Source: Bacteroidales bacterium
GTDB lineage: Bacteria > Bacteroidota > Bacteroidia > Bacteroidales > UBA7960
Length of the DNA: 64,000 nt
Assembly: GCA_019429365.1 (NCBI GenBank)
Contig: JAHYJD010000008.1
Coordinates: forward strand, 948-64,947
Reading direction: 5' to 3'
Both the position numbers and the translations under genes were made by a program. Shown in pieces: positions 1,899 through 64,000 of the stretch. Numbering within the stretch: the first letter of the stretch is position 1; the number at the start of each line of letters is the position of its first letter. The notes under the pieces were generated by a model that ran no database searches, was not told the origin of the DNA, and saw only the letters and a program-made list of their open reading frames with translations.

Positions 1899-3281
1899 TT
1901 ACCCAAGCATTCTCAGGTAGTTAACTTCTTTTTCAGTGAGGAAACGCCACTTTCCGCGGGGCAGGTCCTTTTTTGTCAGGCCTGCAAAAATAACGCGATC
2001 GAGTTTTGTCACCTTGTAGCCAAACTGCTCGAAGAGGCGCCTTACCACGCGGTTCTGACCCGAGTGCAATTCAATACCCACTTCTTTCTTTGTTTCGGCC
2101 TTATCAATATATGATACGGCATCGGGCACCACAAGGTTATCGTCAATCTTCACTCCATTGGCAATTTGTTCCAAATCGGCTTTGGTAACGGCCTGGTCGA
2201 GATGCACGTGGTAAAGTTTTCTTACGCCATGACGCGGGTGGGTGAGTTTTTTGGCCAATTCGCCGTCGTTGGTAAGTAGCAGCAGTCCGGTAGTGTTGCG
2301 GTCGAGCCTTCCCACGGGGTAAACGCGCTCGCGGCCAGCATTTCTGATCAATTCCAGCACGGTTTTACGGTCCTGTGGGTCGTCGGAAGTGGTTATATAA
2401 TCCTTTGGCTTGTTGAGCAGGATATATACTTTCTTTTCGTTCACCAGTCGCTGGGTGCCATACATCACTACGTCGCCGGGCATTACTTTTACGCCCATCT
2501 CGGTCACGATTTTGCCGTTTACGGTAATGGCGCCGTTTTTAATAAGCATGTCGGCTTCGCGCCTGGAGCATACGCCGGCATTGGCAATGTATTTATTCAG
2601 CCTGCTGCTGTCGTCGAGTATTTTGCGGGGTTCTCTGCTACTTCGGTCGGGTTTGCCTTTGGCATAAGGTCGTCCGGAAGCCGGACGATCTTTCGAGTAG
2701 CTGCGTTCGCTACGTTCTGGTCGGTCACTTGAATAGGGCCTGTCGGAGGAGTAGCTGCGTTCGCCCCTGCCGCTGCGATCGCCAGAAGAAGGCCTTCCGG
2801 GAGATTGCCTGCGATCACCAGTCTGCGGACGGTCCTTTGAAAAAGGTTTTTCCCTGGAGAATTTACGGTCACCGGCTTCTGGTCTGTCTTTCGAATAGGG
2901 TTTTTCCCTGGAAAATTTGCGGTCGCCAGTACTTGGACGATCTTTGGAATAGGGTCTTTCTTTGGAGAATTTACGATCGCCCGATTCGGGTCGATCTTTC
3001 GAAAAGGGTCTTTCCCTGGAAAATTTGCGGTCGCCAGTATTTGGACGGTCTTTCGAAAAGGGTTTGTCTTTGGAGAATTTGCGGTCGCCCGATTCGGGTC
3101 GATCTTTTGCATGTGGCCGATCTTTCGAAAAAGGCCGATCTTTTTTGTAGGGGCGGCCTTCGGTGCGGGGCCTGTCGGAACGGGCCTCACGGCCGGTGCT
3201 TTTTCCGGTGGTTTTTGAGCCAGGGCGGCCCGGACGTGCCTTACGCCGGTCTCCACCGGGCCTGGCAGATGTGTTTCTCAT
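1899..3281 (-). CDS. rluB: RluB/RsuA-type 23S rRNA pseudouridine synthase with a long basic, repeat-rich N-terminal extension
   Basis: S4 domain (LNKYIANAGVCSRREADMLIKNGAITVNG) and catalytic motif (GRLDRNTTGLLLLTNDG). About 215 N-terminal residues are R/K/D/P/S low complexity. Confidence 0.85.
   Translation of the reverse strand: MRNTSARPGGDRRKARPGRPGSKTTGKSTGREARSDRPRTEGRPYKKDRPFSKDRPHAKDRPESGDRKFSKDKPFSKDRPNTGDRKFSRERPFSKDRPESGDRKFSKERPYSKDRPSTGDRKFSREKPYSKDRPEAGDRKFSREKPFSKDRPQTGDRRQSPGRPSSGDRSGRGERSYSSDRPYSSDRPERSERSYSKDRPASGRPYAKGKPDRSSREPRKILDDSSRLNKYIANAGVCSRREADMLIKNGAITVNGKIVTEMGVKVMPGDVVMYGTQRLVNEKKVYILLNKPKDYITTSDDPQDRKTVLELIRNAGRERVYPVGRLDRNTTGLLLLTNDGELAKKLTHPRHGVRKLYHVHLDQAVTKADLEQIANGVKIDDNLVVPDAVSYIDKAETKKEVGIELHSGQNRVVRRLFEQFGYKVTKLDRVIFAGLTKKDLPRGKWRFLTEKEVNYLRMLG
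2820..3089 (-). repeat. Five head-to-tail 54-nt (18-aa) coding repeats, GDRKFS[KR][DE][KR]P[FY]SKDRPxx, inside the rluB N-terminal extension
   Basis: Residues 65-154 parse into 5 units of 18 aa. I verified the first unit's codons at 3078-3089 (GDRK). The antisense frame also shows an 18-aa period (ENLRSPDSGRSFEKGLSL). Confidence 0.85.
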
Positions 3282-44253: not shown

Positions 44254-44327
44254 GCCGATGTAGCTCAGTTGGCCAGAGCAGCTGATTTGTAATCAGCTGG
44301 TCGGGGGTTCGAATCCCTCCATCGGCT
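44254..44327 (+). tRNA. tRNA-Thr (anticodon TGT)
   Basis: Acceptor GCCGATG/CATCGGC, anticodon arm GCTGA-TTTGTAA-TCAGC, T-loop GGTTCGAATCC. CCA is not encoded. Confidence 0.93.
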
Positions 44328-44346
44328 CGAAAATTAAAAAGGTTCT

Positions 44347-44428
44347 GGGGGGATTCCAGAGCGGTCAAATGGGGCAGACTGTAAATCTGTTGGCTAAGCC
44401 TTCGGAGGTTCGAATCCTCCTCCCCCCA
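44347..44428 (+). tRNA. tRNA-Tyr (anticodon GTA), class II with long variable arm
   Basis: Acceptor GGGGGGA/TCCCCCC, anticodon loop CTGTAAA, T-arm GGAGG-TTCGAAT-CCTCC. Confidence 0.93.
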
Positions 44429-44476
44429 CAAAAAATAACAGGCGGTGAGTCTGGATCATGAGGCCCAAGGCCGAAT

Positions 44477-44493
44477 AATCCTCCTCCCCCCAC
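44477..44493 (+). repeat. 17-nt perfect direct copy of the tRNA-Tyr 3' end (AATCCTCCTCCCCCCAC)
   Basis: Identical to 44413-44429. It lies 48 nt downstream of the tRNA-Tyr 3' end, and the flanking CCGAAT resembles a degenerate T-loop. Confidence 0.8.
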
Positions 44494-44500
44494 GGAATAA

Positions 44501-44573
44501 GCGGAAATAGCTCATCTGGTAGAGCGACAGCCTTCCAAGCTGTAGGTGGCGGGTTCGAGTCCCGTTTTCCGCT
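44501..44573 (+). tRNA. tRNA-Gly (anticodon TCC)
   Basis: Acceptor GCGGAAA/TTTCCGC, anticodon arm ACAGC-CTTCCAA-GCTGT, T-loop GGTTCGAGTCC. Confidence 0.93.
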
Positions 44574-44592
44574 CGAAAGAAAAAAAATAAAG

Positions 44593-44664
<72 letters not shown>

Positions 44665-44718
44665 CAAACGAAAATATGTTGAATCCCTTTTTTTAAAAAC
44701 TTAAACACCCAGTTAGAT

Positions 44719-45906
44719 ATGGCAAAAGAAAAATTCCAACGCAACAAACCGCACGTGAATGTTGGTACCATTGGTCACGTTGACCACGGTAAAACCACCC
44801 TCACCGCTGCGATCACCCAGATTTTGGCTTCCAAAGGTCTTTCAGAAATCCGTTCGTTCGACTCGATCGACAACGCACCTGAAGAAAAAGAAAGAGGTAT
44901 TACCATTAACACTGCCCACGTTGAGTACCAAACCGAGGCTCGTCACTATGCTCACGTTGACTGCCCCGGCCACGCTGACTACGTGAAGAACATGGTTACT
45001 GGTGCTGCCCAGATGGACGGTGCTATTCTGGTGGTTGCTGCGACCGATGGTCCTATGCCACAGACCCGCGAGCACATTCTTTTGGCCCGTCAGGTTGGTG
45101 TTCCCCAGCTGGTTGTCTTCATGAACAAGGTTGACCTTGTTGATGACGAAGAATTGCTGGACCTTGTTGAAATGGAAATACGCGAACTGCTTTCGTTCTA
45201 TAAATTCGATGGCGACAATATTCCAATTATCCGTGGTTCGGCCCTTGGTGGTCTGAACAACGAGCCCACCTGGGTTGCCAAAATTGAAGAACTGATGGAA
45301 GCTGTGGATACTTTTATTCCGCTGCCCGTCCGCGCAGTCGATAAAAACTTCCTGATGCCCGTTGAAGACGTGTTCTCAATTACCGGCCGTGGTACTGTTG
45401 CCACTGGTAGAATTGAAACCGGCGTTATCAACTCCAGTGATCCGGTTGATATCATTGGTATGGGTGCAGAAAAACTTAAGTCGGTTGTAACCGGTGTGGA
45501 AATGTTCCGTAAGATCCTCGACCGTGGTGAAGCTGGCGACAACGTAGGTCTGCTCCTTCGTGGTATTGACAAGGATGCCATTACCCGCGGTATGGTTATT
45601 TGCAAGCCTGGTTCAGTGAAGCCCCACAAAAAATTCAAGGCTGAGGTTTACGTACTGAAGAAAGAAGAAGGTGGCCGTCATACACCGTTCCACAACAAGT
45701 ATCGTCCGCAGTTCTTCTTCCGTACAACCGACGTTACCGGCGAGATTTATTTGCCCGAAGGTGTAGAAATGTGTATGCCTGGCGATAACCTCACCATTAC
45801 CGTTGAACTGATCGCTGAAGTAGCAATGGACAAAGGTCTGCGCTTTGCAATCCGCGAAGGTGGCCGTACTGTTGGTGCTGGTCAGGTAACTGAAATTATT
45901 GATTAA
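44719..45906 (+). CDS. tuf: Elongation factor Tu
   Basis: [18 protein letters not shown] and NKVD GTPase motifs, 395 aa. Confidence 0.98.
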
Positions 45907-45960
45907 ATATATCAGTAGCAAACAGGGAGCAGGTGCCACCATCTGCTCCCTTGTGCGCAC

Positions 45961-46033
45961 ACGGGTGTAGCTCAATTGGTAGAGTAGTGGTCTCCAAAAC
46001 CATTGGTTGAGGGTTCGAGTCCTTCCACCCGTG
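45961..46033 (+). tRNA. tRNA-Trp (anticodon CCA)
   Basis: Acceptor ACGGGTG/CACCCGT, anticodon loop CTCCAAA, T-loop GGTTCGAGTCC. Confidence 0.92.
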
Positions 46034-53216: not shown

Positions 53217-56200
53217 ATGGCTTTCAGAAAAGAAACCAACGTTAAAAGCAATTTTTCCCAGATCACCATCAGCCTGGCCTCGCCCGAGTCTGTATTGGAA
53301 CGTTCGCACGGGGAAGTGCTTAAGCCGGAAACTATCAACTACCGTACCTATAAGCCCGAACGCGACGGACTGTTTTGCGAAAGGATCTTTGGGCCGGTAA
53401 AGGATTGGGAATGCCATTGCGGAAAATACAAGCGTATCCGTTACAAAGGAATCGTTTGCGACCGCTGCGGTGTTGAAGTGACTGAGAAGAAGGTTCGTCG
53501 CGAAAGGATGGGCCACATTAAACTGGTAGTGCCCGTGGCACACATCTGGTTCTTCCGTTCGCTTCCCAATAAAATTGGCTACCTGCTTGGATTGCCCTCA
53601 AAAAAACTCGACCAGATCATTTATTACGAAAGGTATGTGGTCGTTAATCCCGGTATCAAGGCCGATGAGCTTAACTTCCTCGATTTCCTTACAGAAGAAG
53701 AGTATTTCAATATCCTGGAGTCGCTTCCGCGCGAAAACCAGATCCTTGAAGACGACGATCCCAATAAATTCGTGGCCAGGATGGGCGCCGAAGCGTTGAA
53801 AGATATTTTACACCGCCTCGACCTCGACCAATTGTCGTACGACCTTCGCCACAAGGCCAATACCGAAACCTCGCAGCAGCGTAAGGCTGATGCCCTCAAG
53901 AGGCTGCAGGTGGTTGAAGCCTTTCGCGAATCGCAAAAAACCATTGAGAACAAGCCCGAATGGATGATCGTGGATGTGGTTCCCGTTATTCCCCCGGAGC
54001 TTCGCCCCCTCGTGCCACTCGATGGCGGCCGGTTTGCCACCAGCGACCTGAACGACCTCTACCGTCGCGTAATCATTCGCAACAACCGCCTGAAGCGTCT
54101 CATCGAAATCAAGGCACCTGATGTAATTTTGCGTAATGAGAAGCGTATGCTTCAGGAAGCTGTGGATTCGCTGTTTGACAACTCGCGCAAGACCAACGCA
54201 GTAAAGACCGAGTCGAATCGTCCGCTTAAGTCGCTCAGCGACAGCCTCAAGGGTAAGCAGGGACGTTTCCGTCAGAACCTTTTGGGTAAAAGGGTCGACT
54301 ATTCGGCCCGTTCGGTTATTGTGGTTGGTCCTGAGCTGAAGCTTCACGAATGCGGTCTTCCCAAAGAAATGGCCTCCGAGCTTTTCAAGCCTTTCATTAT
54401 TCGTAAGATGCTCGAAAGGGGTATCGTCAAGACGGTGAAGTCGGCCAAAAAGATCGTTGACCGTAAGGATCCCGTTGTATGGGATATCCTGGAAAATGTA
54501 TTGAAGGGGCACCCGGTGCTTCTTAACCGTGCGCCTACGCTTCACCGCTTGGGTATTCAGGCTTTTCAGCCCAAACTGATCGAGGGGAAAGCTATTCAGC
54601 TGCACCCGCTGGTTTGTACCGCTTTCAACGCCGACTTCGATGGTGACCAGATGGCCGTTCACGTGCCCCTGGGCAATGCTGCCATTCTTGAAGCACAGCT
54701 TCTGATGCTGGCTTCGCACAATATCCTTAACCCTGCCAACGGGGCACCCATTGCCGTCCCTTCGCAGGACATGGTTCTTGGCCTTTATTACATGACCAAG
54801 GCCCGCAAGAGTACTCCCGAACATCCTGTTAAAGGAGAAGGACTGACATTTTATGGTCCGGAGGAAGTAATTATAGCGCACAACGAAGGTGCTGCCGATC
54901 TGCACGCCATCATTAAGGTTCGCGTTCCCGTAAGGGAAAACGGACAACTGGTGGAACACCTCATCGAAACCACCGTAGGCCGCGTGCTGTTTAACCAGGT
55001 GATTCCCAAAGAGTATGGCTTTATCAACCAGCTGCTTACCAAAAAAGCACTGCGCGATATCATTGGCGCCATCATGAAAGTGACCGGTATTTCCCAAACC
55101 TCGCAGTTTCTCGATGATATCAAAGACCTTGGGTTTACCATGGCATTCAAAGGTGGTTTGTCATTCAACCTGGGCGATATCCTTGTTCCGGAAGAAAAAC
55201 AGATCCTTATTGATCAGGCCAACGAACAGGTTGATGAAGTGCGTGCCAACTACAGCATGGGCTTTATCACCAACAACGAACGTTATAACCAGATCATCGA
55301 TATCTGGACACACACCAACGCCAAGCTTACCAAGGTGCTGATCGAAAAGACCACTGCCGACAACCAGGGTTTCAACCCGGTGTATATGATGCTCGACTCC
55401 GGTGCAAGGGGCTCAAAAGAGCAGATTCGTCAGCTCTCGGGTATGAGGGGTCTTATGGCCAAGCCACAGAAATCGGGCGCCAAAGGTGGTGAAATTATTG
55501 AAAACCCCATTCTTTCCAACTTTAAGGAAGGTCTGTCGGTTCTCGAGTACTTTATCTCCACCCACGGTGCACGTAAAGGTCTGGCCGATACTGCCCTTAA
55601 AACGGCCGATGCCGGTTATCTTACCCGACGTCTGGTCGACGTTTCTCAGGACGTGATTGTAACCGAGCCCGATTGCGGAACCCTTCGCGGTTTAACCGCC
55701 ACTGCACTCAAAAACAACGAGGAAACAGTTGAGCCTTTATTCGACCGTATCCTGGGCCGTACAACCCTGCACGATATCTATCACCCAACCACTGCTGAAC
55801 TTATTGTTAAAGCAGGGGAGGAATTAACCGAGGAGATATCCAGGATTATTGAAGATTCACCCATTGAAGCGGTAGAAATTCGTTCGGTACTTACCTGTGA
55901 GTCGAAACATGGTGTTTGTGCTAAATGCTACGGCCGCAACCTGGCCACCGGACGTATGGTTCAGAAAGGCGAAGCTATTGGCGTTATCGCAGCCCAGTCT
56001 ATCGGTGAACCCGGTACTCAGCTTACACTTCGTACCTTCCACGTGGGTGGTGTTGCAGCTGGCCTTGCCACTGCCTCTAAAATAAACGCCAAGTATGGCG
56101 GTCTCCTTGAGATCGACGAACTCCGCAGCGTACCGTTTACCAATGCTGAAGGGAAATCCTACCACGTGGTTATTGGTCGTTCGGCAGAGATGCGCATTGT

Positions 56201-57512
56201 GGACAAGAGCACCCGCATGGTGCTTACCAGCCAGAATATACCCTACGGTGCCAGCCTGTATTTCGAGGCTGGACAGGAAGTGGAAAGCGGCGACCTGATT
56301 TGCGAGTGGGATCCCTACAACGCCGTGATTATTTCCGATATGAGTGGTAAAGTGGTGTTCAACCAAATGCAGGAAGGCGTTACTTACCGTACCGATTCTG
56401 ACGAACAGACGGGTTACTACGAAAAAGTGATCGTCGAAAGCAAGGACAGAACAAGGAACCCTTCCATTAGTATTGTTGATAAGGATGGCGAAATTCTTCG
56501 CACTTACGACATGCCCGTGGGAGCTCACATTGTTGTGTCTGAAAATCAGGAGATTGTAGCTGGTAAAACGGTAGCTAAGATTCCCAGGGCCGTTGGTAAA
56601 TCTGGTGACATCACTGGTGGTCTGCCAAGGATCACCGAACTGTTCGAAGCCCGTAACCCAAGCGATCCGGCTGTGGTTTCTGAAATCGATGGTGTAGTTT
56701 CGTTTGGCAAGAAGATCAAGCGCGGTAACCGCGAGGTGGTTATTACTTCCAAAACCGGCGATGAGAAGCGTTACCTTATTCCGCTTTCGAAGCAGATCCT
56801 TGCCCAGGAAAATGACTTTGTGAAAGCCGGCACGCCCATGTCTGATGGCCCGATCACCCCGGCCGATATCCTTGCTATTAAAGGCCCCACCGCCGTGCAG
56901 GAGTATATCGTGAATGAGGTGCAGGAAGTATATCGCATGCAGGGTGTGAAGATCAACGACAAGCACTTCGAAGTAATTGTTCGCCAGATGATGCGCAAGG
57001 TAACCATTGACGATCCGGGCGATACCCGCTTCCTCGAAAACGAGATCGTGAACAAGATCGAGTTTATGGAAGAGAACGACAACAATTTCGGCAAGAAGGT
57101 GGTTGAAGATCCGGGTGACTCTGTTCTCAGACCTGGTCAGATTATCACTGCCCGTAAGCTGCGCGACGAAAACTCGCTGCTCAAGCGTAAGGACAAGGCC
57201 ATTGTTGTTGCCCGCGATGCCAGAGGTGCTACGGCACGTCAGCAGCTGCAGGGTATTACCAAAGCTTCACTCCAGACCAAGAGCTTTATCTCGGCTGCTT
57301 CCTTCCAGGAAACCACCAAGGTACTTACCGATGCGGCTGTTAATGCCAAAGTCGATAACCTGGCAGGCCTGAAGGAAAACGTGATCGTTGGTCACCTGAT
57401 CCCAGCCGGTACCGGTCTCAGGGAGTACGAAAACATCATTGTTGGATCAATGGAAGAGTACAACCTGTTGATGGCCTCCAAGCGAAAAGTTGAAGAAGTA
57501 GAAGAAGATTAA
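53217..57512 (+). CDS. rpoC: DNA-directed RNA polymerase subunit beta'
   Basis: Zn-finger CHCGKYK..CDRCG, catalytic NADFDGDQM, 1431 aa. Confidence 0.98.
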
Positions 57513-57896: not shown

Positions 57897-58337
57897 TTAA
57901 AAGAATCGGAATGCCCGCAGCAAACCCTCTTCATTGTCTCCATACCATACCAGCAGGAACTGTCCCCGGACTTTTGCATCGTTCTTGACCTTCTCCCAGG
58001 TCTCTTCCATCTCCTTTTCTTCCCCATCATCTTTAAAGGTTACAAACCTTCTAACATAATCTTCCACCTGCTCGAGTGACTCCCTGGGGTCTTTGCCTTC
58101 TTTTACCTTAAATACAAAAGCTTTCAGGTTGGCGTCGTGATAAATAAGCAGGTCGTTCACGCCAATCAGGTTCAGCGCCATCTTTTCCAGGGTGCCGTTG
58201 GGCTGGCGGTATTCGCCTGAATATCCGGCCCGCTGCATCTTTTCCTTCAGTACATTCAAATTGCCCGGCTCGCGCTGGCAGGCAAGAAATCCTGCCAGCA
58301 TCAGGCTGAAAACGATCAGGGTTCTAAAAATCTTCAT
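57897..58337 (-). CDS. Hypothetical small lipoprotein (146 aa)
   Basis: The ATG at 58337 gives MKIFRTLIVFSLMLAGFLAC (lipobox). The track's longer N-terminus (MERDRSIVEKDRSIVEK...) is only translation of the 21-nt repeat array. Confidence 0.6.
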   Translation of the reverse strand: MKIFRTLIVFSLMLAGFLACQREPGNLNVLKEKMQRAGYSGEYRQPNGTLEKMALNLIGVNDLLIYHDANLKAFVFKVKEGKDPRESLEQVEDYVRRFVTFKDDGEEKEMEETWEKVKNDAKVRGQFLLVWYGDNEEGLLRAFRFF

Positions 58338-58384
58338 AAGAATTGTTTTTGCGAAGATAATGCAAAAGATTATTCTCGCAGTAG

Positions 58385-58502
58385 GGACAGGTCGCGACCT
58401 GTCCTTTTCCACAATTGACCTGTCCTTTTCCACAATTGACCTGTCCTTTTCCACAATCGACCTGTCCTTTTCCACAATTGACCTGTCCCTTTCCACACAA
58501 TC
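58385..58502. repeat. 20-bp perfect palindrome (GGACAGGTCGCGACCTGTCC, 58385-58404) leading into five head-to-tail 21-bp repeats (GACCTGTCCTTTTCCACAATT, 58396-58502)
   Basis: Copies at 58396-416, 58417-437, 58438-458 (1 substitution), 58459-479 and 58480-502 (degenerate, 2-nt insertion). The palindrome is an inverted copy of the GACCTGTCC core. Confidence 0.9.
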
Positions 58503-58515
58503 GCCCTGACCCTGA

Positions 58516-61452
58516 TCACCCCCTCGGGTCGGGCTTCATGGGCAGGCGGGCCATTTTTTCTACGGTTAATGATGGGAAACCGAACTCTTCAGTTATGGTG
58601 CCCAGCAGCAGGTATATGCCGCTTCCGCGGAAAGGCCAGGCTTTGGAAGCGCCGGGAAAGTGGACGGTGTCGAAGAAGTTGCCCTGCACATCCAGAAAGC
58701 AGCCGAAGTGCATCATTTCGCGCTTTACGGTGCGCACGTATTTGATGGTGACCAGCCAGCCCACCATGCGCACCTTGCGCCCCACCTGCTGCAGCATATC
58801 TGTGGCCATCATCTCGCCGCGGAAGCCGCTCTTTGCCAGGTCGAAGGGACTCATCGACACGGTGAAACCCAGCAGTTCCATTTCATCATAGGCATCCTGC
58901 ACGGGGTCGGTTTCCGGTTCAGGAAAGTGAAAGGCCTTTTCCTGCGCGGCAAACAGCATGGGGCCGGTGGTGGGTTTCTTACCAGTGAGCAGATGCGCCT
59001 TCCACATAAGCTGTGCCTTGGCAATGCCCGTAAACCGGAAAGCATTGACACGAATGAGCAGTATGAGCTGCTCCAGTCCGGCCCCGCTGCGGCGGGCAAA
59101 GTCTTCCAGGCCCAGGTAGGGCCCGCTGCCTTCGCGCTCGGCTGTGATGTGCTGCGCCAGCTTGTATTCCAGGTTCTGTATGTGCACAAAGCCAATGTAA
59201 ATATCACTTCCGTAAATGGTGGTGGTGTAGTTGCTGTGGTTTACGCAGGGCAGCTCGATATTGGCGCCATAGCGGCGGGCTTCGTTGAAATACACCGGGC
59301 TCTGGTAGAAGCCGCCAAAGTTGTTGATCACGGCGGTCATAAACTCGCGCGGATAATAGGCTTTCAGGTAAAGGCTCTGGTAGCTTTCCACGGCAAATGA
59401 AGCCGAGTGGGCTTTCGAAAAAGAGTATCCGGCAAAAGACTCAATCTGCCGCCACACTTCGCTGATGAGGCTTTCGGGATAGCCTTTGGCGCGGCAGTTT
59501 TCGAAAAAGCGGTCCACAATACGCTGCATTTCTTTTTTAGAGCGGTACTTGCCGCTCATGGCACGCCGCAGCACGTCGGCATCGGCCAGGTCGAGCCCGG
59601 CAAAGTGGTGGCATACCTTGATCACGTCTTCCTGATACACCATTACGCCGTAGGTTTCCTTCAGCTGCTGCTCCATAACCGGATGCAGATACTCAAAACC
59701 CTTGGGGTTGTGGAAGCGCTGAATGTATTCGCGCATCATGCCCGAGCGGGCCACCCCGGGGCGTATGATGGAGCTGGCGGCCACCAGGCTGATGTAGTTG
59801 TCGCAGCGCAGCTTCTTGAGCAGCCCGCGCATGGCGGGGCTCTCTACATAGAAGCAGCCGGTGGTCTCGCCCGAGCGAAGCAGCGCCTTCACCTTCTCAT
59901 CTTTTTTGAACATCTCCACCTGGTGCACATCCACGCTGATGCCGTAGTTTTGCCTTACAATCTGGGCGCACTCATTGATATGGCCGATGCCTCGCTGGCT
60001 CAGGATATCGATCTTCTCGAAGGCCAGCTCTTCGGCGGTGTACATGTCCCACTGCACGGTGGGCAGGCCCTTGGGCGGCATGTCGAAGGCTGAGTAGCAG
60101 TTGATAGGCTGCTCAGAGATGAGCACGCCCCCGGCATGGATGCTGCGCATATTGGGAAAGTCGGCCAGCTGTTCGGCCATTCGGAAGATGCGGGCGCCCA
60201 CGGCATCGGGCGTGCGGCGGGCTTCGTGGTTCGACACCAGCATGTCGATCTCGGCTTTGGGCAGGCCCAGCACCTTGCCCAGCTCACGTATCATGCTGCG
60301 GTCGCGAAAGGTGCTGATGGTGCCCAGCAGGGCGGTGTGCTCATGGCCGTAGCGCTTGAAGATGTAGTCGAGCACCTGGTCGCGCTCCTTCCACGAGTAG
60401 TCAATGTCGAAGTCGGGCGGGGTGGTGCGCTTGGGGTTGATAAAGCGCTCGAAGTAAAGGTCGAGCTCAATGGGGTCCACGTCGGTGATGCGCAGGCAGT
60501 AGGCCACGATGCTGTTGGCGCCGCTGCCGCGCCCCACATGGTAGAAGCCGCGCGACATGGAGTAGCGTATGATGTCCCAGGTAATGAGGAAGTAGGACGA
60601 GAAGCCCAGCTTGTCGATGATCTCCAGTTCGTGCTGCACTTGCCGCAGGGCTTCCTTGTTGCGCTTGCCGTAGCGGTATTCCAGCCCGTCCATAGCCAGC
60701 TTGGTAAGCAGGGCACGGTCATCGGCCGGATGGCCGGTAAAAGTCTTTTTGTTTTTGGGTGTGCGGAAGTCGAAGTCCATGTGGCACTGCTCCAGCAGCA
60801 TTTCTGCGTTGGTGATGAGCTGCGGGAAGCTTTGGTAGTGGCTGCGCAGGGCGGCAGGCGAAGGGAGGACTTCGCCGGGGTGGGCGGTATGTTTGCCGGT
60901 GAGGCGGCTCAGCACTATGTTGTGGTCGATGGCGCGCAGGTGGCGGTGCAGTTCAAATTCCCTTTCAGAAAGGAAGGTGATGGGATGCAGGGCCACGAGC
61001 TTCGCAGGGTGGTGGCGCAGGGGAGCGGTGGAGAGACGCGTGAGCTCCCAAGGGCGTATGCCGATATATTCGTTGTTGCCGGGGAACGACCCTGCGCCAC
61101 CCTCCCCGAAAGGGTAAATGACAAAAGTATGATCGCATACCGGAAAGCGTTCGGGCAGTGCTGTCCTGTCAATATTATGCTGGCTCAGGAATGCGTTGAT
61201 GCGGCGAAAGCCTTCGGGGTCGCGTGCCAGCACAATGTACAGCAGGCGGTCGCCCTTGCGAAACTCCATGCCTGCCACGGGTGCAATGCCCTGCTCACGG
61301 CACAGCTTTACGAAATCGGGCATGGCCGTAGCGTTGTTGATGTCGGTCAGCGCCATGCGTTTGATGCCCATCTCAGCGGCCCGTGTCACCAGGTCTTCGG
61401 GGCTTACGGTGCCGTAGCGCAGGCTGTAGTATGTGTGGCAGTTGATGAACAT
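58516..61452 (-). CDS. dnaE2: Error-prone DNA polymerase III alpha-like subunit (DnaE2-type), 978 aa
   Basis: N-terminal PHP domain (CHTYYSLRYGT), a pol III alpha core (FDIDYS catalytic-Asp region; GLLKMDFLG region replaced by KIDILSQRG) and a C-terminal OB-like region. Short length and linkage to a Y-family polymerase and an S24 repressor fit DnaE2. Confidence 0.85.
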   Translation of the reverse strand: MFINCHTYYSLRYGTVSPEDLVTRAAEMGIKRMALTDINNATAMPDFVKLCREQGIAPVAGMEFRKGDRLLYIVLARDPEGFRRINAFLSQHNIDRTALPERFPVCDHTFVIYPFGEGGAGSFPGNNEYIGIRPWELTRLSTAPLRHHPAKLVALHPITFLSEREFELHRHLRAIDHNIVLSRLTGKHTAHPGEVLPSPAALRSHYQSFPQLITNAEMLLEQCHMDFDFRTPKNKKTFTGHPADDRALLTKLAMDGLEYRYGKRNKEALRQVQHELEIIDKLGFSSYFLITWDIIRYSMSRGFYHVGRGSGANSIVAYCLRITDVDPIELDLYFERFINPKRTTPPDFDIDYSWKERDQVLDYIFKRYGHEHTALLGTISTFRDRSMIRELGKVLGLPKAEIDMLVSNHEARRTPDAVGARIFRMAEQLADFPNMRSIHAGGVLISEQPINCYSAFDMPPKGLPTVQWDMYTAEELAFEKIDILSQRGIGHINECAQIVRQNYGISVDVHQVEMFKKDEKVKALLRSGETTGCFYVESPAMRGLLKKLRCDNYISLVAASSIIRPGVARSGMMREYIQRFHNPKGFEYLHPVMEQQLKETYGVMVYQEDVIKVCHHFAGLDLADADVLRRAMSGKYRSKKEMQRIVDRFFENCRAKGYPESLISEVWRQIESFAGYSFSKAHSASFAVESYQSLYLKAYYPREFMTAVINNFGGFYQSPVYFNEARRYGANIELPCVNHSNYTTTIYGSDIYIGFVHIQNLEYKLAQHITAEREGSGPYLGLEDFARRSGAGLEQLILLIRVNAFRFTGIAKAQLMWKAHLLTGKKPTTGPMLFAAQEKAFHFPEPETDPVQDAYDEMELLGFTVSMSPFDLAKSGFRGEMMATDMLQQVGRKVRMVGWLVTIKYVRTVKREMMHFGCFLDVQGNFFDTVHFPGASKAWPFRGSGIYLLLGTITEEFGFPSLTVEKMARLPMKPDPRG

Positions 61453-61457
61453 TTTTT

Positions 61458-61491
61458 CGGATTACGCGGATTGTTACGGATTGCACGGATT
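61458..61491. repeat. Four phased CGGATT hexamers (AAUCCG on the dnaE2 mRNA strand) at 9-10-nt spacing, 6-40 nt upstream of the dnaE2 ATG
   Basis: CGGATT at 61458-63, 61467-72, 61477-82 and 61486-91. Confidence 0.85.
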
Positions 61492-61535
61492 TGGGAAGGG
61501 CACCCCTCGACTTCGCTCGGGGCAGGCAGGGAAAA

Positions 61536-61620
61536 GGAGGTAGCGGCAGGAGGTAGCGGCAGGAGGTAGCGGCAGGAGGTAGCGGCAGGAGGTAGCGGCA
61601 GGAGGTAGCAGCAGGAGGCA
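61536..61620. repeat. 13-nt tandem repeat GGAGGTAGCGGCA, 6 copies plus a partial 7th
   Basis: Copies start at 61536, 61549, 61562, 61575, 61588 and 61601 (variant), with a partial copy at 61614. The period is not a multiple of 3. Confidence 0.9.
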
Positions 61621-61636
61621 GAATACAGTAGCAATA

Positions 61637-61713
61637 AAACCTGAAACCTGAAACCTGAAACCTTAAACCTTAAACCTTGAACCCCAAACTCCAAACTCCA
61701 AACCTGAAACCTA
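61637..61713. repeat. Heptanucleotide tandem array (AAACCTG / AAACCTT / AAACTCC variants), about 11 units
   Basis: Units run from 61637 every 7 nt. The last unit overlaps the stop codon (61711-13) of the Y-family polymerase gene. Confidence 0.9.
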
Positions 61714-62868
61714 TCCCGGTGTCATGGCCACTCCGCGGTGCAGGGCGCTTTCGCCGTGCTTGCGGCGCATGCGGTCGATGGCCTGGTAGAGGCTGATGAG
61801 CTCGGGTGTTTCTTCGAACATATTGAGTTGCTGCACGCCATGCACCAGGCGGCTGAACTGTATGCCCACCAGTCGTATGAGCATGCGGCGGGTGTAAAGT
61901 CGCCGGAACAGCTCCTTGCATACGGGGATGAGCACGTGGTCAAAGGAGGTGTAAGGCACGGTTTGCTGCAGGGTGTGGGTGTCGAAGTTGGCGTAGCGTA
62001 TCTTCACGGTGACGCAGCCGGTGAGCTGCTGCTTCTTGCGCAGGCGGTAGGCCACCTTCTCGCACATGCGCACCAGCAGGTCGTTGATAAAGGCAATGTC
62101 GATGGTGTCGGTTTCGAAGGTGCTCTCGGTGCCGATGGATTTTCGCTCACTCCAGCTCTGTACCGGGCTGCTGTCGATGCCGTTGGCCCGCCGCCATATC
62201 TCGCGGCCGTTCTTGCCCATCATGTTTTCCATCACCTCGGGCGGTATGCGGCTCAGGGTGCCTATGGTGGCAATGCCCATGGTGCGCAGGGTGTAATAGG
62301 TCTTGGAGCCGATCATGGGAATCTTGCGGATAGACAGGGGATCGAGAAAGGGCCGCAGCATGGGCTGCTGCACCTGTATCTGCCCGTTGGGCTTGGCTTC
62401 GCCCGTGGCGATCTTCGACACGGTCTTGTTCATCGAAAGCCCCATGGAGATGGGCAGCCCCGTTTCTTTTATGATGTATTGCCGCAGCTCTGAAGCCCAT
62501 TTGTAGCAGCCAAAGAAGCGATCCATACCCGTGATGTCGAGGTAGTGCTCGTCGATGGAGGCCTTCTCGAATACCGGCGCCCGCTCGGCAATGATCTGCG
62601 TGACCATGTTGGAGTACTTGCTGTAGTCCTGCAGGTCGCCGCGAATGAACACGGCATCGGCACAGAGGTTGCGGGCCAGCTTCATGGGCATGGCCGAATG
62701 CACCCCATACTGCCGCGCCTCGTAGCTGCAGCCTGCCACCACGCCCCGGTCGCCCATACCGCCAATGATCACGGGCTTGCCAACGAGGCTGCTGTTGTGC
62801 AGGCGCTCCACCGACACAAAAAAAGTGTCCTGATCGAGGTGTGCTATGGTGCGGGCAGAAGAGTCCAT
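61711..62868 (-). CDS. dinB: Y-family DNA polymerase (DinB/Pol IV-like) with catalytic acidic residues retained
   Basis: HLDQDTFFVSVE aligns with E. coli DinB HVDMDCFFAAVE (D8/D10), and SIDEHYLD with SLDEAYLD (D103/E104). 385 aa. Confidence 0.85.
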   Translation of the reverse strand: MDSSARTIAHLDQDTFFVSVERLHNSSLVGKPVIIGGMGDRGVVAGCSYEARQYGVHSAMPMKLARNLCADAVFIRGDLQDYSKYSNMVTQIIAERAPVFEKASIDEHYLDITGMDRFFGCYKWASELRQYIIKETGLPISMGLSMNKTVSKIATGEAKPNGQIQVQQPMLRPFLDPLSIRKIPMIGSKTYYTLRTMGIATIGTLSRIPPEVMENMMGKNGREIWRRANGIDSSPVQSWSERKSIGTESTFETDTIDIAFINDLLVRMCEKVAYRLRKKQQLTGCVTVKIRYANFDTHTLQQTVPYTSFDHVLIPVCKELFRRLYTRRMLIRLVGIQFSRLVHGVQQLNMFEETPELISLYQAIDRMRRKHGESALHRGVAMTPG

Positions 62869-62915
62869 AAATATTTTTTGCTCAGGCGCTTGCCGTTTCA
62901 GAAAATGTTTTAACT

Positions 62916-62964
62916 TTGATTAGAATATGATCAAGATTCTGGTTATAATTTAATCAAAAATTGA
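62916..62964. promoter_or_regulatory. Candidate operators in the divergent dinB / lexA-like control region
   Basis: Palindromes TTGAT-N9-ATCAA (62916-62934) and TCAA-N3-TTGA (62954-62964) lie in the AT-rich 144-bp intergenic region. No binding motif was verified. Confidence 0.3.
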
Positions 62965-63012
62965 ATTGTGGTTCTTGTTAAGGGGTGATTTTTTCTGCCA
63001 AAACACAGTATT

Positions 63013-63858
63013 ATGAGTTTCTTTGCATCCAACATCAAGCTTTTGCGCAAGCGGCGCGGCCGCACCCAGGACGATGTGGCCTTTTTGCTTAACATGAAGC
63101 GCCCCACCCTGAGCGGTTACGAGAATGAGGTGGCCCAGCCCGGGCTGGAAGCCCTTGTGACTTTTTCGAAGTATTACAACGTGTCCATCGACACCCTGAT
63201 AAAGGTTGATCTTGCCAGTTTGGCTGAAAGCCAGCTCAGGCAGCTGGAGCGGGGCTACGATGTCTTCGTTTCGGGCAGCAAGCTGCGGGTGCTGGCTACC
63301 ACCGTCGACAGCGACAACGAAGAGAACATCGAGTTGGTGTCGGAAAAGGCCAAGGCCGGCTACCGCACCGGCTTTGCCGACCCGGAGTTCATCAAGGTGC
63401 TGCCTACCTTCCAGATGCCTTTCCTGTCGAAGCAGAAGAAGTACCGCAGCTTCCAGGTCTCGGGCGACAGCATGCTGCCCATACCCGAGGGCTCATGGGT
63501 TACCTGCGAGTTTGTACAGAACTGGAACCTGATACAGAACCGCCATGCCTACGTGATTCATACCCTCGACGATGGGGTAGTGTTTAAGGTGGCGGAAAAC
63601 CTGATAAGGAGCGAAGGCAAGCTGCGGCTCTATTCGCTCAATCCGATATACGAGCCTTACGAAGTGCATGTGAACGACATCCGCGAGGTGTGGAAGTTCG
63701 TCCACTTCATCAGCAGCCAGATACCCGAAGCCAACTCGCCCATGGAGCAGCTCTCAAATCAGTTCATACAGCTAAAGAAAGAGGTGGAGTCCATCAAAAC
63801 CAAGCTAAAGCCAAAGCAGCCCAAAGGAAAAACGGGCAACCTTTTCGGTGATGAATAA
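63013..63858 (+). CDS. CI/XRE-type HTH plus S24 peptidase repressor (non-canonical LexA-like)
   Basis: N-terminal HTH (RRGRTQDDVAFLLNMKRPTLSGYENE). Candidate Ala-Gly self-cleavage site (KAKAGY). S24 Ser (VSGDSMLP) and Lys (VVFKV). Coiled-coil-like C-terminal tail. Confidence 0.8.
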   Translation: MSFFASNIKLLRKRRGRTQDDVAFLLNMKRPTLSGYENEVAQPGLEALVTFSKYYNVSIDTLIKVDLASLAESQLRQLERGYDVFVSGSKLRVLATTVDSDNEENIELVSEKAKAGYRTGFADPEFIKVLPTFQMPFLSKQKKYRSFQVSGDSMLPIPEGSWVTCEFVQNWNLIQNRHAYVIHTLDDGVVFKVAENLIRSEGKLRLYSLNPIYEPYEVHVNDIREVWKFVHFISSQIPEANSPMEQLSNQFIQLKKEVESIKTKLKPKQPKGKTGNLFGDE

Positions 63859-63866
63859 AATGTTTT

Positions 63867-64000
63867 TTACAAACTTTTTATCAGTTCGGTAAAGACCACT
63901 GTCATGTTACGCTCGGCCACCTGGGCCACGTTTTGCACTTCTTCGTGGCTGGTGGGCTTGTCGGTGTCGGCGGGCTTGGCCAGGTTAGTGATGACCGAAA
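63867..64000 (-). CDS. 3' end of an unidentified minus-strand gene (partial)
   Basis: Hand translation gives ...NLAKPADTDKPTSHEEVQNVAQVAERNMTVVFTELIKSL* with the stop at 63867-69. The frame is open to the window edge. Confidence 0.4.
   Translation of the reverse strand, partial: SVITNLAKPADTDKPTSHEEVQNVAQVAERNMTVVFTELIKSL

Follow-up and report, generated by a model that had tools for sequence, protein, structure and literature searches.

A repeat-filled, slippage-prone linker between the Y-family polymerase gene and dnaE2 in a Bacteroidales mutagenesis cassette

The DNA studied here is a 64,000-nucleotide stretch from a Bacteroidales bacterium (contig JAHYJD010000008.1 of assembly GCA_019429365.1, positions 948 to 64,947; the whole stretch is called the window below), and the element in question is the spacer between two genes of a mutagenesis cassette, namely the gene of a DinB-like Y-family DNA polymerase (polY) and dnaE2, which follows it on the minus strand and encodes an error-prone DNA polymerase. 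It was found that this spacer, which is filled largely with tandem repeats, is a non-coding, dispensable, fast-changing and locus-specific linker that stands in place of a tight gene junction, and that in most Bacteroidales a repeat-filled junction is conserved at this place as a property, with no conservation of its sequence. Our reading, to which we give about an even chance and in which the function is inferred from sequence comparison, is that the spacer is a linker built by slippage that may uncouple dnaE2 from the upstream gene and tune its dosage. The main rival is the functionless accumulation of repeats.

The non-coding gap between the two genes measures 258 nt (61453-61710), and it is real because the proteins of relatives align from residue 1 of DnaE2 and to the last residues of the Y-family polymerase. 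Arrays were called with Tandem Repeats Finder and by direct reading of the sequence (Table 1). The initial annotation, made on this DNA from its letters, had described three arrays filling the spacer over roughly 190 nt, and both methods bear this out, the arrays together covering 77 + 84 + 34 = 195 of the 258 nt. On the plus strand, the heptamer units read AAACCTG (three times), AAACCTT (three times), GAACCCC, AAACTCC (twice), AAACCTG and AAACCTA, and the last of these contains CTA, the TAG stop codon of polY on the minus strand; in the mRNA, the array reads as GUUUCAG, GUUUGGA, GUUUGGG, GUUCAAG and GUUUAAG, with a composition of G 0.31 and C 0.08. Over 61535-61620, the 13-mer array is rich in C (0.52) and poor in G (0.15); for the final 171 nt of the spacer, the values are C 0.43 and G 0.18. 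The period-9 array (3.7 copies, 76% matches, score 38) has its CGGATT units starting at 61458, 61467, 61477 and 61486, and it ends 5 nt before the ATG (AAAAA), not 6 nt as first described. The remark that no period is a multiple of 3 applies to the real spacing of these units (9/10/9 nt) and not to their nominal period of 9.

A search for the double heptamer with up to two mismatches gave six matches, all within the array, where 0.78 were expected and none of 100 shuffles reached six. For the 13-mer, six of ten matches were the array itself, and the other four were scattered matches with two mismatches. Chance thus falls far short of accounting for the heptamer and 13-mer arrays. The phasing of CGGATT taken alone is weak (two matches vs 0.34 expected; 3 of 100 shuffles gave as many). 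Within the 64-kb window, tandem repeats make up 61% of the spacer and 57% of the region just 3′ of dnaE2, in comparison to 1.6% of the other 28 intergenic regions. A hidden small gene was considered and rejected: the sole open reading frame over the repeats (61404-61694, minus strand, 96 aa, TTG start) encodes a low-complexity peptide with no family match, in agreement with the earlier view that the arrays are non-coding.

Table 1. Positions of the spacer elements and of the surrounding cassette in the window.
Feature	Position	Strand	Basis or remark
Heptamer array, 11 units	61637-61713	-	G/U-rich; starts inside the polY stop codon
13-mer array, 6.5 copies (UGCCGCUACCUCC on mRNA)	61535-61618	-	98% matches, score 161
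Unique segment with imperfect hairpin (CCCCGAGCGAAGUCGAGGGG on mRNA)	61503-61522	-	Sequence, fold
Four AAUCCG units (CGGATT on plus strand), spacing 9/10/9 nt	61458-61491	-	Period-9 array
A5 run, positions -1 to -5 of the dnaE2 ATG; A-rich start context without Shine-Dalgarno sequence	61453-61457	-	Sequence
Y-family DNA polymerase gene, DinB/Pol IV-like (Bacteroidetes PolY2 type, partner of DnaE2)	61711-62868	-	Pfam IMS + IMS_C
dnaE2-type error-prone DNA polymerase gene, 978 aa	58516-61452	-	PHP, DNA_pol3_alpha, finger and HHH_6 domains
Divergent repressor gene, non-canonical LexA type of Bacteroidetes	63013-63858	+	Pfam HTH_3 + Peptidase_S24
Two GATYA-N5-TAAYC palindromes, 23 nt apart, between repressor gene and polY (probable operators)	62917-62956	.	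Sequence
21-mer array, 4.9 copies, G-rich on sense strand (AATTGTGGAAAAGGACAGGTC)	58385-58497	-	Tandem Repeats Finder; starts about 18 nt 3′ of the dnaE2 stop

That the arrays are an assembly artefact is hardly credible. Short-read assemblers do break at arrays, leaving contig ends there, and the count of 6.5 copies of the 13-mer rests on the assembly, not on reads. However, homologous units are found in many independent assemblies (NCBI, JGI, ENA and Logan), chromosome-level assemblies of relatives have repeat-filled spacers (L023, L025, L028, L031, L041 and L045), and a window-type allele was present in metagenome run X8, as a 233-nt contig that differs by one base over 61328-61560 and ends within the 13-mer array. 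A metagenome scan with the spacer-ATG junction as the pattern gave no match, and protein look-ups gave no record of the window's own exact DnaE2 and PolY sequences.

The junction was compared in 80 orthologous loci across Bacteroidales, with DnaE2 61-97% identical to that of the window. The protein search gave only relatives of at least 57% identity, and a wider phylogenetic range came from a plasmid collection; gene calls were crude, and the comparison covered assembled contigs. The junctions range from 2 to 641 nt. A spacer was called array-bearing if it contained a tandem array of at least 20 nt, and among the 58 spacers of at least 30 nt, 42 (72%) were array-bearing, as against 10 of 156 other co-directional intergenic regions (6%; odds ratio 38, p = 7e-22, where this p-value and the one given below are too optimistic because the loci are related and the gene calls crude). 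Tandem repeats cover 36.5% of spacer bases vs 1.5% of the intergenic DNA elsewhere on the same contigs. The enrichment survived thinning of the set to less than 70% DnaE2 identity, arrays persisting in 10 of 13 spacers. The arrays mostly abut both the stop codon and the start codon; their commonest periods are 7 nt (41 of 85 arrays) and 8 nt (19 of 85), and their units fall into at least 37 unrelated families. The other non-coding DNA of the cassette is enriched to a lesser extent, with repeats covering 11% of the region between the repressor gene and polY, 10.5% of that 3′ of the repressor gene and 4.6% of that 3′ of dnaE2.

Outside the order, the cassettes of Cytophagales and Flavobacteriales recovered from plasmids have junctions of -4, -1 and +13 nt, and one has 74 nt without repeats, whereas one Persicobacter cassette has a 299-nt junction of repeated hairpin modules. 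Because outgroup junctions overlap or are very short, the tight junction looks like the ordinary state and the repeat-filled linker like the derived one; the tight outgroup junctions probably represent translational coupling.

The lability of the spacer is most directly visible in a close set of cassettes, in which the DinB-like protein and the repressor are 85-98% identical to those of the window (DnaE2 89-97%), and in four more cassettes at 81-88% DnaE2 identity. The nearest genome is a Bacteroidales metagenome-assembled genome, L001, at 97% DnaE2 identity. Junctions in the close set measure 9, 104, 140, 144, 168, 230 and 258 nt. The 9-nt junction is that of L092 (CCG TAA TCCAAAAA ATG, L092:10285-10296), whose DinB-like protein and repressor are 96.9% and 95.7% identical to those of the window and which comes from the same metagenome as L093, a strain with a 168-nt spacer. 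As so close a relative links the two genes with 9 nt, the spacer is dispensable.

Between close relatives, the spacer changes in steps of whole units, which are gained or lost. L088 has a single copy of the 13-mer, L001 and L082 have two each, and the window has 6.5; therefore, the 13-mer array of the window is a recent expansion. The heptamer blocks vary in number and in variant, from 3 to 11 units. L001 has three extra GGTTCGG units, and a CCCTGTG array of four units takes the place of the unique hairpin segment of the window; this L001-type allele, with two 13-mer copies and the three extra units, was also found in sequencing runs X1-X4. The spacer of L081, at 94% identity, is unrelated and contains AAAAATG and CATTTTT arrays in inverted orientation. 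Conservation within the spacer is best for the AAUCCG array, which is retained in most relatives at 81-97% DnaE2 identity and absent from L081, L086 and L092; AAATCCG-like arrays are also present in more distant relatives. The earlier claim that the arrays are prone to slippage is thus borne out by comparison of related strains and metagenome-assembled genomes.

The same annotation had taken the three repeat families to be unrelated and had raised the question of whether they are specific to this locus; such specificity holds for the 13-mer and the CGGATT element and not for the heptamer. In the single-genome run X1, the AAACCTG heptamer had about five times the read depth of its flanks, and at least two further long contigs ended in it, once directly 5′ of an ATG; therefore, the heptamer family is not locus-specific. 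The 13-mer is a single-locus element because its read depth was not raised in this relative's genome, and the CGGATT element is likewise found at a single locus. Scattering of the units as generic microsatellites throughout the genome was accordingly found in part, for the heptamer and in run X1.

The arrays differ in composition according to their position. On the mRNA strand, the first fifth of a spacer is rich in G (G 0.29, C 0.14), whereas its last fifth is rich in C and poor in G (C 0.27, G 0.11). This polarity, with G-rich sequence behind the stop codon and C-rich, G-poor sequence ahead of the start codon, was found in 45 of 54 loci (p = 4.5e-9). The window obeys it, with G/U-rich heptamers followed by C-rich 13-mers and then by A/C-rich AAUCCG units. 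Arrays 3′ of dnaE2 have a G-rich sense strand, and in the leader of the DinB-like gene the arrays are mostly poor in G. Furthermore, a 5′ spacer half pairs better with the 3′ half of its own locus than with halves taken from other loci: the mean z is -1.03, 12 of 54 loci lie below -2 and 26 of 54 below -1, and the window reaches only -0.65. Together, the polarity and the locus-specific complementarity argue against pure junk.

The arrays belong to the heptamer-class long simple-sequence repeats (LSSR, akin to the cyanobacterial STRR), and slippage is the accepted view of how this class is built. In the mechanism that we propose, the linker would break the coupling between the polY stop codon and the dnaE2 start codon, and translation of dnaE2 would have to begin anew at the gene's own start region, which lacks a Shine-Dalgarno sequence and in which the A5 run is preceded by a G-poor, A/C-rich array. 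Initiation in Bacteroidia takes place without Shine-Dalgarno pairing and is sensitive to upstream adenines and to structure (PMC6847099). The long untranslated stretch, which is G/U-rich after the stop codon and continues with 85 nt of C-rich, G-poor 13-mers that have the composition of a Rho-loading site, may lower or modulate the output of DnaE2 relative to that of the DinB-like polymerase. Slippage would then bring about a heritable, reversible and graded change in the dosage of the mutagenic polymerase, so that the spacer would act as a tuning knob and not as an on/off switch. The survival of an array at each position may be filtered at the level of the RNA, and we propose such filtering as the origin of the polarity, G-rich after the stop and G-poor before the start.

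A different role in initiation had been suggested in the initial annotation, in which the CCUCC tracts of the 13-mer were taken to be anti-Shine-Dalgarno-like and the AAUCCG units to lie in a ribosome-binding region. This candidate was rejected, since the ribosomes of Bacteroidia do not use Shine-Dalgarno pairing (PMC7797042, PMC6847099, PMC9976891).

Against the tuning linker stands the main rival, according to which the arrays are a by-product: the junction would be a local slippage hotspot or a site tolerant of inserts, at which neutral arrays expand and decay, and the polarity would reflect what is harmless near a stop codon or a start codon. We take this to be a serious possibility, although we lean against it. 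A number of observations agree with it or weigh against a function of the linker. The spacer is dispensable, as seen in L092, and 10 of 68 relatives have a junction of 2-19 nt; since this length suffices for them, any function of the spacer would have to be optional. The turnover of sequence is complete, as is evident from the 37 unit families and from the wholly different spacer of L081, and the enrichment in repeats extends to the other non-coding DNA of the cassette. There is no gain in predicted structure or accessibility: across loci, the accessibility of the start region was 0.550, compared to 0.547 in controls with shuffled upstream sequence (p = 0.43), so that no effect on initiation was computed. 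The spacers of L091 and L093, which are the same strain in two samples, are identical, the locus was found in no RNA run, and the optimism of the p-values noted above counts in the same direction. The bias toward heptamers is usually explained by a property that the polymerase shows in slippage (Mrazek 2007, as cited in PMC4679880 and PMC4692102). Finally, graded tuning is hard to distinguish from the neutral drift of a tolerated insert.

On the other hand, relaxed constraint alone fails to explain the 24-fold excess of repeats over intergenic DNA of similar length, and we know of no mechanism that raises slippage at a single operon. The complementarity of the spacer ends in about half of the loci and the flip in polarity within one transcript also point to some selection.

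The composition of the 13-mer array bears on a second alternative, a Rho-dependent attenuator, in which this array (85 nt, period 13) would load Rho and reduce transcription into dnaE2, more copies giving stronger polarity. A Rho loading site is a stretch of RNA of about 80 nt, rich in C and poor in G, in which pyrimidine-C dinucleotides recur about every 12 nt. The 13-mer array matches this in composition, being about 80 nt of untranslated, C-rich, G-poor RNA that is predicted to be weakly structured, as is the spacer RNA in general; the last 171 nt of the spacer are of similar composition, and the 3′ spacer halves are C-rich and G-poor in 45 of 54 relatives. All of this support is compositional, however, and the expansion of the 13-mer is recent and strain-specific, relatives having one or two copies. 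Moreover, many relatives have A/T-rich arrays instead (for example ACTTTTT), and to our knowledge nothing is known of the site preference of Rho in this lineage. We consider such an attenuator unlikely.

The complementarity of the spacer ends could instead indicate a structured regulatory RNA, in which the G-rich 5′ array would pair with the C-rich 3′ arrays to form a long stem that joins the stop and start codons, masks the start or serves as an RNase III site. The pairing of halves within their own locus in relatives is consistent with this, as are the (GGGGUUC)3 gained in L001, which pairs in the centroid structure with the matching (CCCUGUG)4, and the inverted AAAAAUG and CAUUUUU arrays of L081. 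In the window, however, own-locus pairing is weak, as given above, and the RNA of the 258-nt spacer is predicted to fold worse than dinucleotide shuffles (z +1.87; opposite strand, z +2.27). No Rfam family matched the spacer, either at the gathering threshold or at E-values up to 1; the start-region accessibility is unchanged across loci, the spacer sequence is not conserved, and the periods of 7, 13 and 9-10 nt mismatch each other. A regulatory RNA of this kind is, on these model structures, quite unlikely. A G-quadruplex reading was set aside, as the G runs of the window are only two long and many relatives have 5′ arrays without G runs. Masking or exposure of the dnaE2 start by the arrays was considered as a separate candidate and rejected, because the predicted accessibility was the same as in the shuffled-upstream controls. 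Therefore, of the earlier hypothesis that the repeats form RNA structure or protein-binding sites controlling dnaE2 translation, the structural part gains nothing from the window fold, the Rfam search or the accessibility, and it is kept open by the complementarity of arrays in about half of the relatives.

The initial annotation had also proposed that slipped-strand variation in copy number makes the expression or coupling of the error-prone polymerase a contingency-type switch. Copy number does vary between strains, also between close relatives, and this part of the proposal stands; of an on/off switch there is no sign, as neither a promoter nor a reading frame spans the arrays. A classical contingency locus, in which the error-prone polymerase is turned on and off by phase variation, is very unlikely for several reasons: the arrays are intercistronic, lie outside the reading frame and are not placed between promoter elements (by a scan for sigma-70-type promoters), the gain or loss of 7- or 13-nt units cannot switch a frame here, the organisms are from bioreactors and sediments, not from hosts, and the same strain in two samples (L091 and L093) has the same spacer. 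The scan of the spacer gave no terminator-like site and no sigma-70-type promoter, and does not cover Bacteroidetes-type promoters.

The arrays might also be binding sites for a protein, which could be a LexA-like repressor (the half-site TAATC is contained within GTAATCCG) or a binder of 6-7 nt of single-stranded RNA, such as a cold-shock protein or S1. The retention of AAUCCG beside the ATG in most of the 81-97% relatives and its recurrence in distant ones would fit such a role, and heptamer repeats 5′ of start codons have been proposed to bind proteins of this kind (TAACTGA repeats, PMC4679880). However, the operator of the cassette has the dyad form GATYA-N5-TAAYC (an inverted repeat), of which the spacer contains no instance. 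The 37 unrelated unit families make a sequence-specific binder unlikely, and we regard protein-binding arrays in the window as highly improbable.

A broader proposal, which we put forward tentatively and hold to be rather doubtful, is that the junction between the DinB-like gene and dnaE2 is a lineage-wide hotspot in Bacteroidales, at which dozens of independent origins of arrays would be owed to the error-prone polymerases that the locus encodes. It is possible that repeat length is selected as a heritable, reversible rheostat of the dosage of the mutagenic polymerase, which would be second-order selection on mutability. Alternatively, it is possible that the polymerases prefer their own SOS-induced locus as a template and leave slippage scars of 7-8 nt behind.

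The genes around the spacer were identified as in the initial annotation. The polY reading frame scores above the NCBIfam cut-off for DNA polymerase IV (NF002677, 285.9 bits vs 256), its domains and those of DnaE2 agree with the assignment, and the DnaE2 proteins of relatives are annotated at JGI as "error-prone DNA polymerase". The gene order, with polY directly 5′ of dnaE2 on the same strand and no imuA, is retained in relatives, and the repressor gene is retained and divergent in 57 of them. A cassette type with PolY2 and DnaE2 is known in Bacteroidetes (PMC6511836), as is the family of non-canonical LexA-type repressors (PMC8565304), and by its sequence the locus belongs to this PolY2 + DnaE2 variant of the mutagenesis cassette, probably under a non-canonical LexA.

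The two palindromes upstream of polY, which are the sole zero-mismatch matches to GATYA-N5-TAAYC in the 64-kb window, are probable operators of the HTH/S24 repressor, and a periodic pair at 23 nt recurs 5′ of polY in most relatives. The motif resembles a diverged operator of the non-canonical LexA family, the published motifs of which (CTAA-N5-TTAG and GGA-N5-TCC) differ from it. In L088, the gene of an IS200-like Y1 transposase (L088:967-1398) is inserted between the repressor gene and the DinB-like gene.

The cassette adjoins rpoB-rpoC (rpoC, 53217-57512), and its G+C content (54-59% over 58001-64000) is higher than that of the remaining window (43-51%). The 21-mer array 3′ of dnaE2 finishes with a perfect 20-nt palindrome (GGACAGGTCG/CGACCTGTCC, 58385-58404; fold z -1.85) and may be the 3′ end of the operon or a terminator; its counterpart in L001 is a related 23-mer in 2.5 copies. 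Elsewhere in the window, repeats of 54 and 108 nt at 2827-3144 are coding and form an N-terminal extension of an S4 + pseudouridine synthase protein (open reading frame 1899-3281, minus strand), and five tRNA genes are clustered at 44254-46033.

Several further repeat types were observed in the relatives. The mini-hairpin GCGAAGC is about 12-fold enriched in spacers (1.18 vs 0.096 per kb) with a bias toward the sense strand, an enrichment that comes from a few loci (L017, L018, L073, L082 and L083) and is not a general feature. The spacers of L017 and L018 are tandem hairpin modules, the stems of which vary between copies by paired changes. Telomere-like, G-rich arrays of (AGGGGTTAGGGTTT)n, with G runs sufficient for a G-quadruplex, are located on the sense strand about 12 nt after the dnaE2 stop in L022, L027, L030, L041, L045 and L050, and about 750 nt after it in L039. 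Arrays are also present in the leader of the DinB-like gene, between operator and start, in L044, L049, L051 and L066. The leader unit of L049, ACTCTAGGC, is identical to the unit that precedes dnaE2. In both L049 and L044, complementarity exists between the array that directly follows the stop codon and the one ahead of dnaE2; in L049, the former is therefore complementary to the leader array as well.

Error-prone polymerases set the speed of mutation in bacteria under stress, and apart from the LexA-like repressors found recently, next to nothing is known of how their dosage is controlled in Bacteroidota. The junction described here shows clearly that a property can be conserved where the sequence is not, and it would reflect either convergent selection for an adjustable linker before dnaE2 or a locus-specific mutational process, each of which would be new. 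It also provides a defined, testable locus for the old question of the role of heptamer repeats in bacteria, as the natural alleles of 9, 168 and 258 nt in near-identical cassettes allow a direct comparison.

Both the repeat class and the cassette are known from earlier work. The initial annotation knew of no description of such an arrangement; heptamer-class repeats near stop and start codons have in fact been described (PMC4692102, PMC4679880), and in the open-access literature we found no link between them and a mutagenesis cassette. The concentration of repeats in a mutagenesis cassette thus appears to be undescribed. With LSSR and STRR, the window shares intergenic head-to-tail arrays beyond chance, with 7 nt as the commonest unit length in the orthologous spacers, a length and sequence that vary among close relatives while the flanking genes are retained, and a preference for co-directional junctions. 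Recurrence of a unit within one genome, another trait of LSSR, was seen for the heptamer in run X1 and not for the 13-mer or CGGATT. In published LSSR, a single unit family dominates each genome and is scattered over hundreds of loci without preference for any function, whereas here one operon junction draws arrays of dozens of unrelated units throughout the order (72% vs 6%); the preference for four units that is tied to G-quadruplexes in published LSSR is absent here.

The GGGNATC and GGGGAYT heptamer repeats of Xanthomonas and Nostoc (Rehm 2015, PMC4692102) share the strand preference found here, the G-rich strand being sense after a stop codon and antisense before a start codon; their first unit may likewise overlap the stop, and inverted sets may form stem-loops. 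The TAACTGA repeats of Beggiatoaceae, Cyanobacteria and some Bacteroidetes (PMC4679880) are heptamers that end a few nt before a start codon without a Shine-Dalgarno sequence, and they vary between strains by indels in 7-nt steps, both as here. Variants with one mismatch (GACTGAA and AACTGAA) directly precede the dnaE2 ATG in the Marinilabiliales L021, L023, L025, L028, L031 and L032, but the window spacer has no TAACTGA unit, and its start-proximal unit is AAUCCG at a spacing of 9-10 nt.

The published PolY2-DnaE2 cassettes (PMC6511836, PMC8565304) have in common with this one a divergent HTH/S24 repressor gene, dyad operators, an apparently active DinB-like gene, dnaE2 and the lack of imuA. 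The junction of the polymerase genes is not mentioned in either paper (the word "intergenic" is absent from PMC6511836). The operator differs, being GATYA-N5-TAAYC here. As with REP and BIME elements, which as repeats between co-transcribed genes can alter relative downstream expression, the arrays lie within an operon, and the spacers of L017, L018 and L096 are REP/BIME-like in being tandem hairpin modules; however, REP and BIME are palindromic and 20-40 bp long, whereas the arrays of the window are direct repeats of 7 and 13 nt. Contingency loci and mutator switches, such as the hexamer repeats in mutL, are cases in which slippage-prone repeats are tied to a gene that affects the mutation rate, as they are here. 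Known contingency cases work through frameshifts, in-frame indels or promoter spacing and give discrete states, whereas the repeats between polY and dnaE2 are intercistronic, and their effect would be at most graded.

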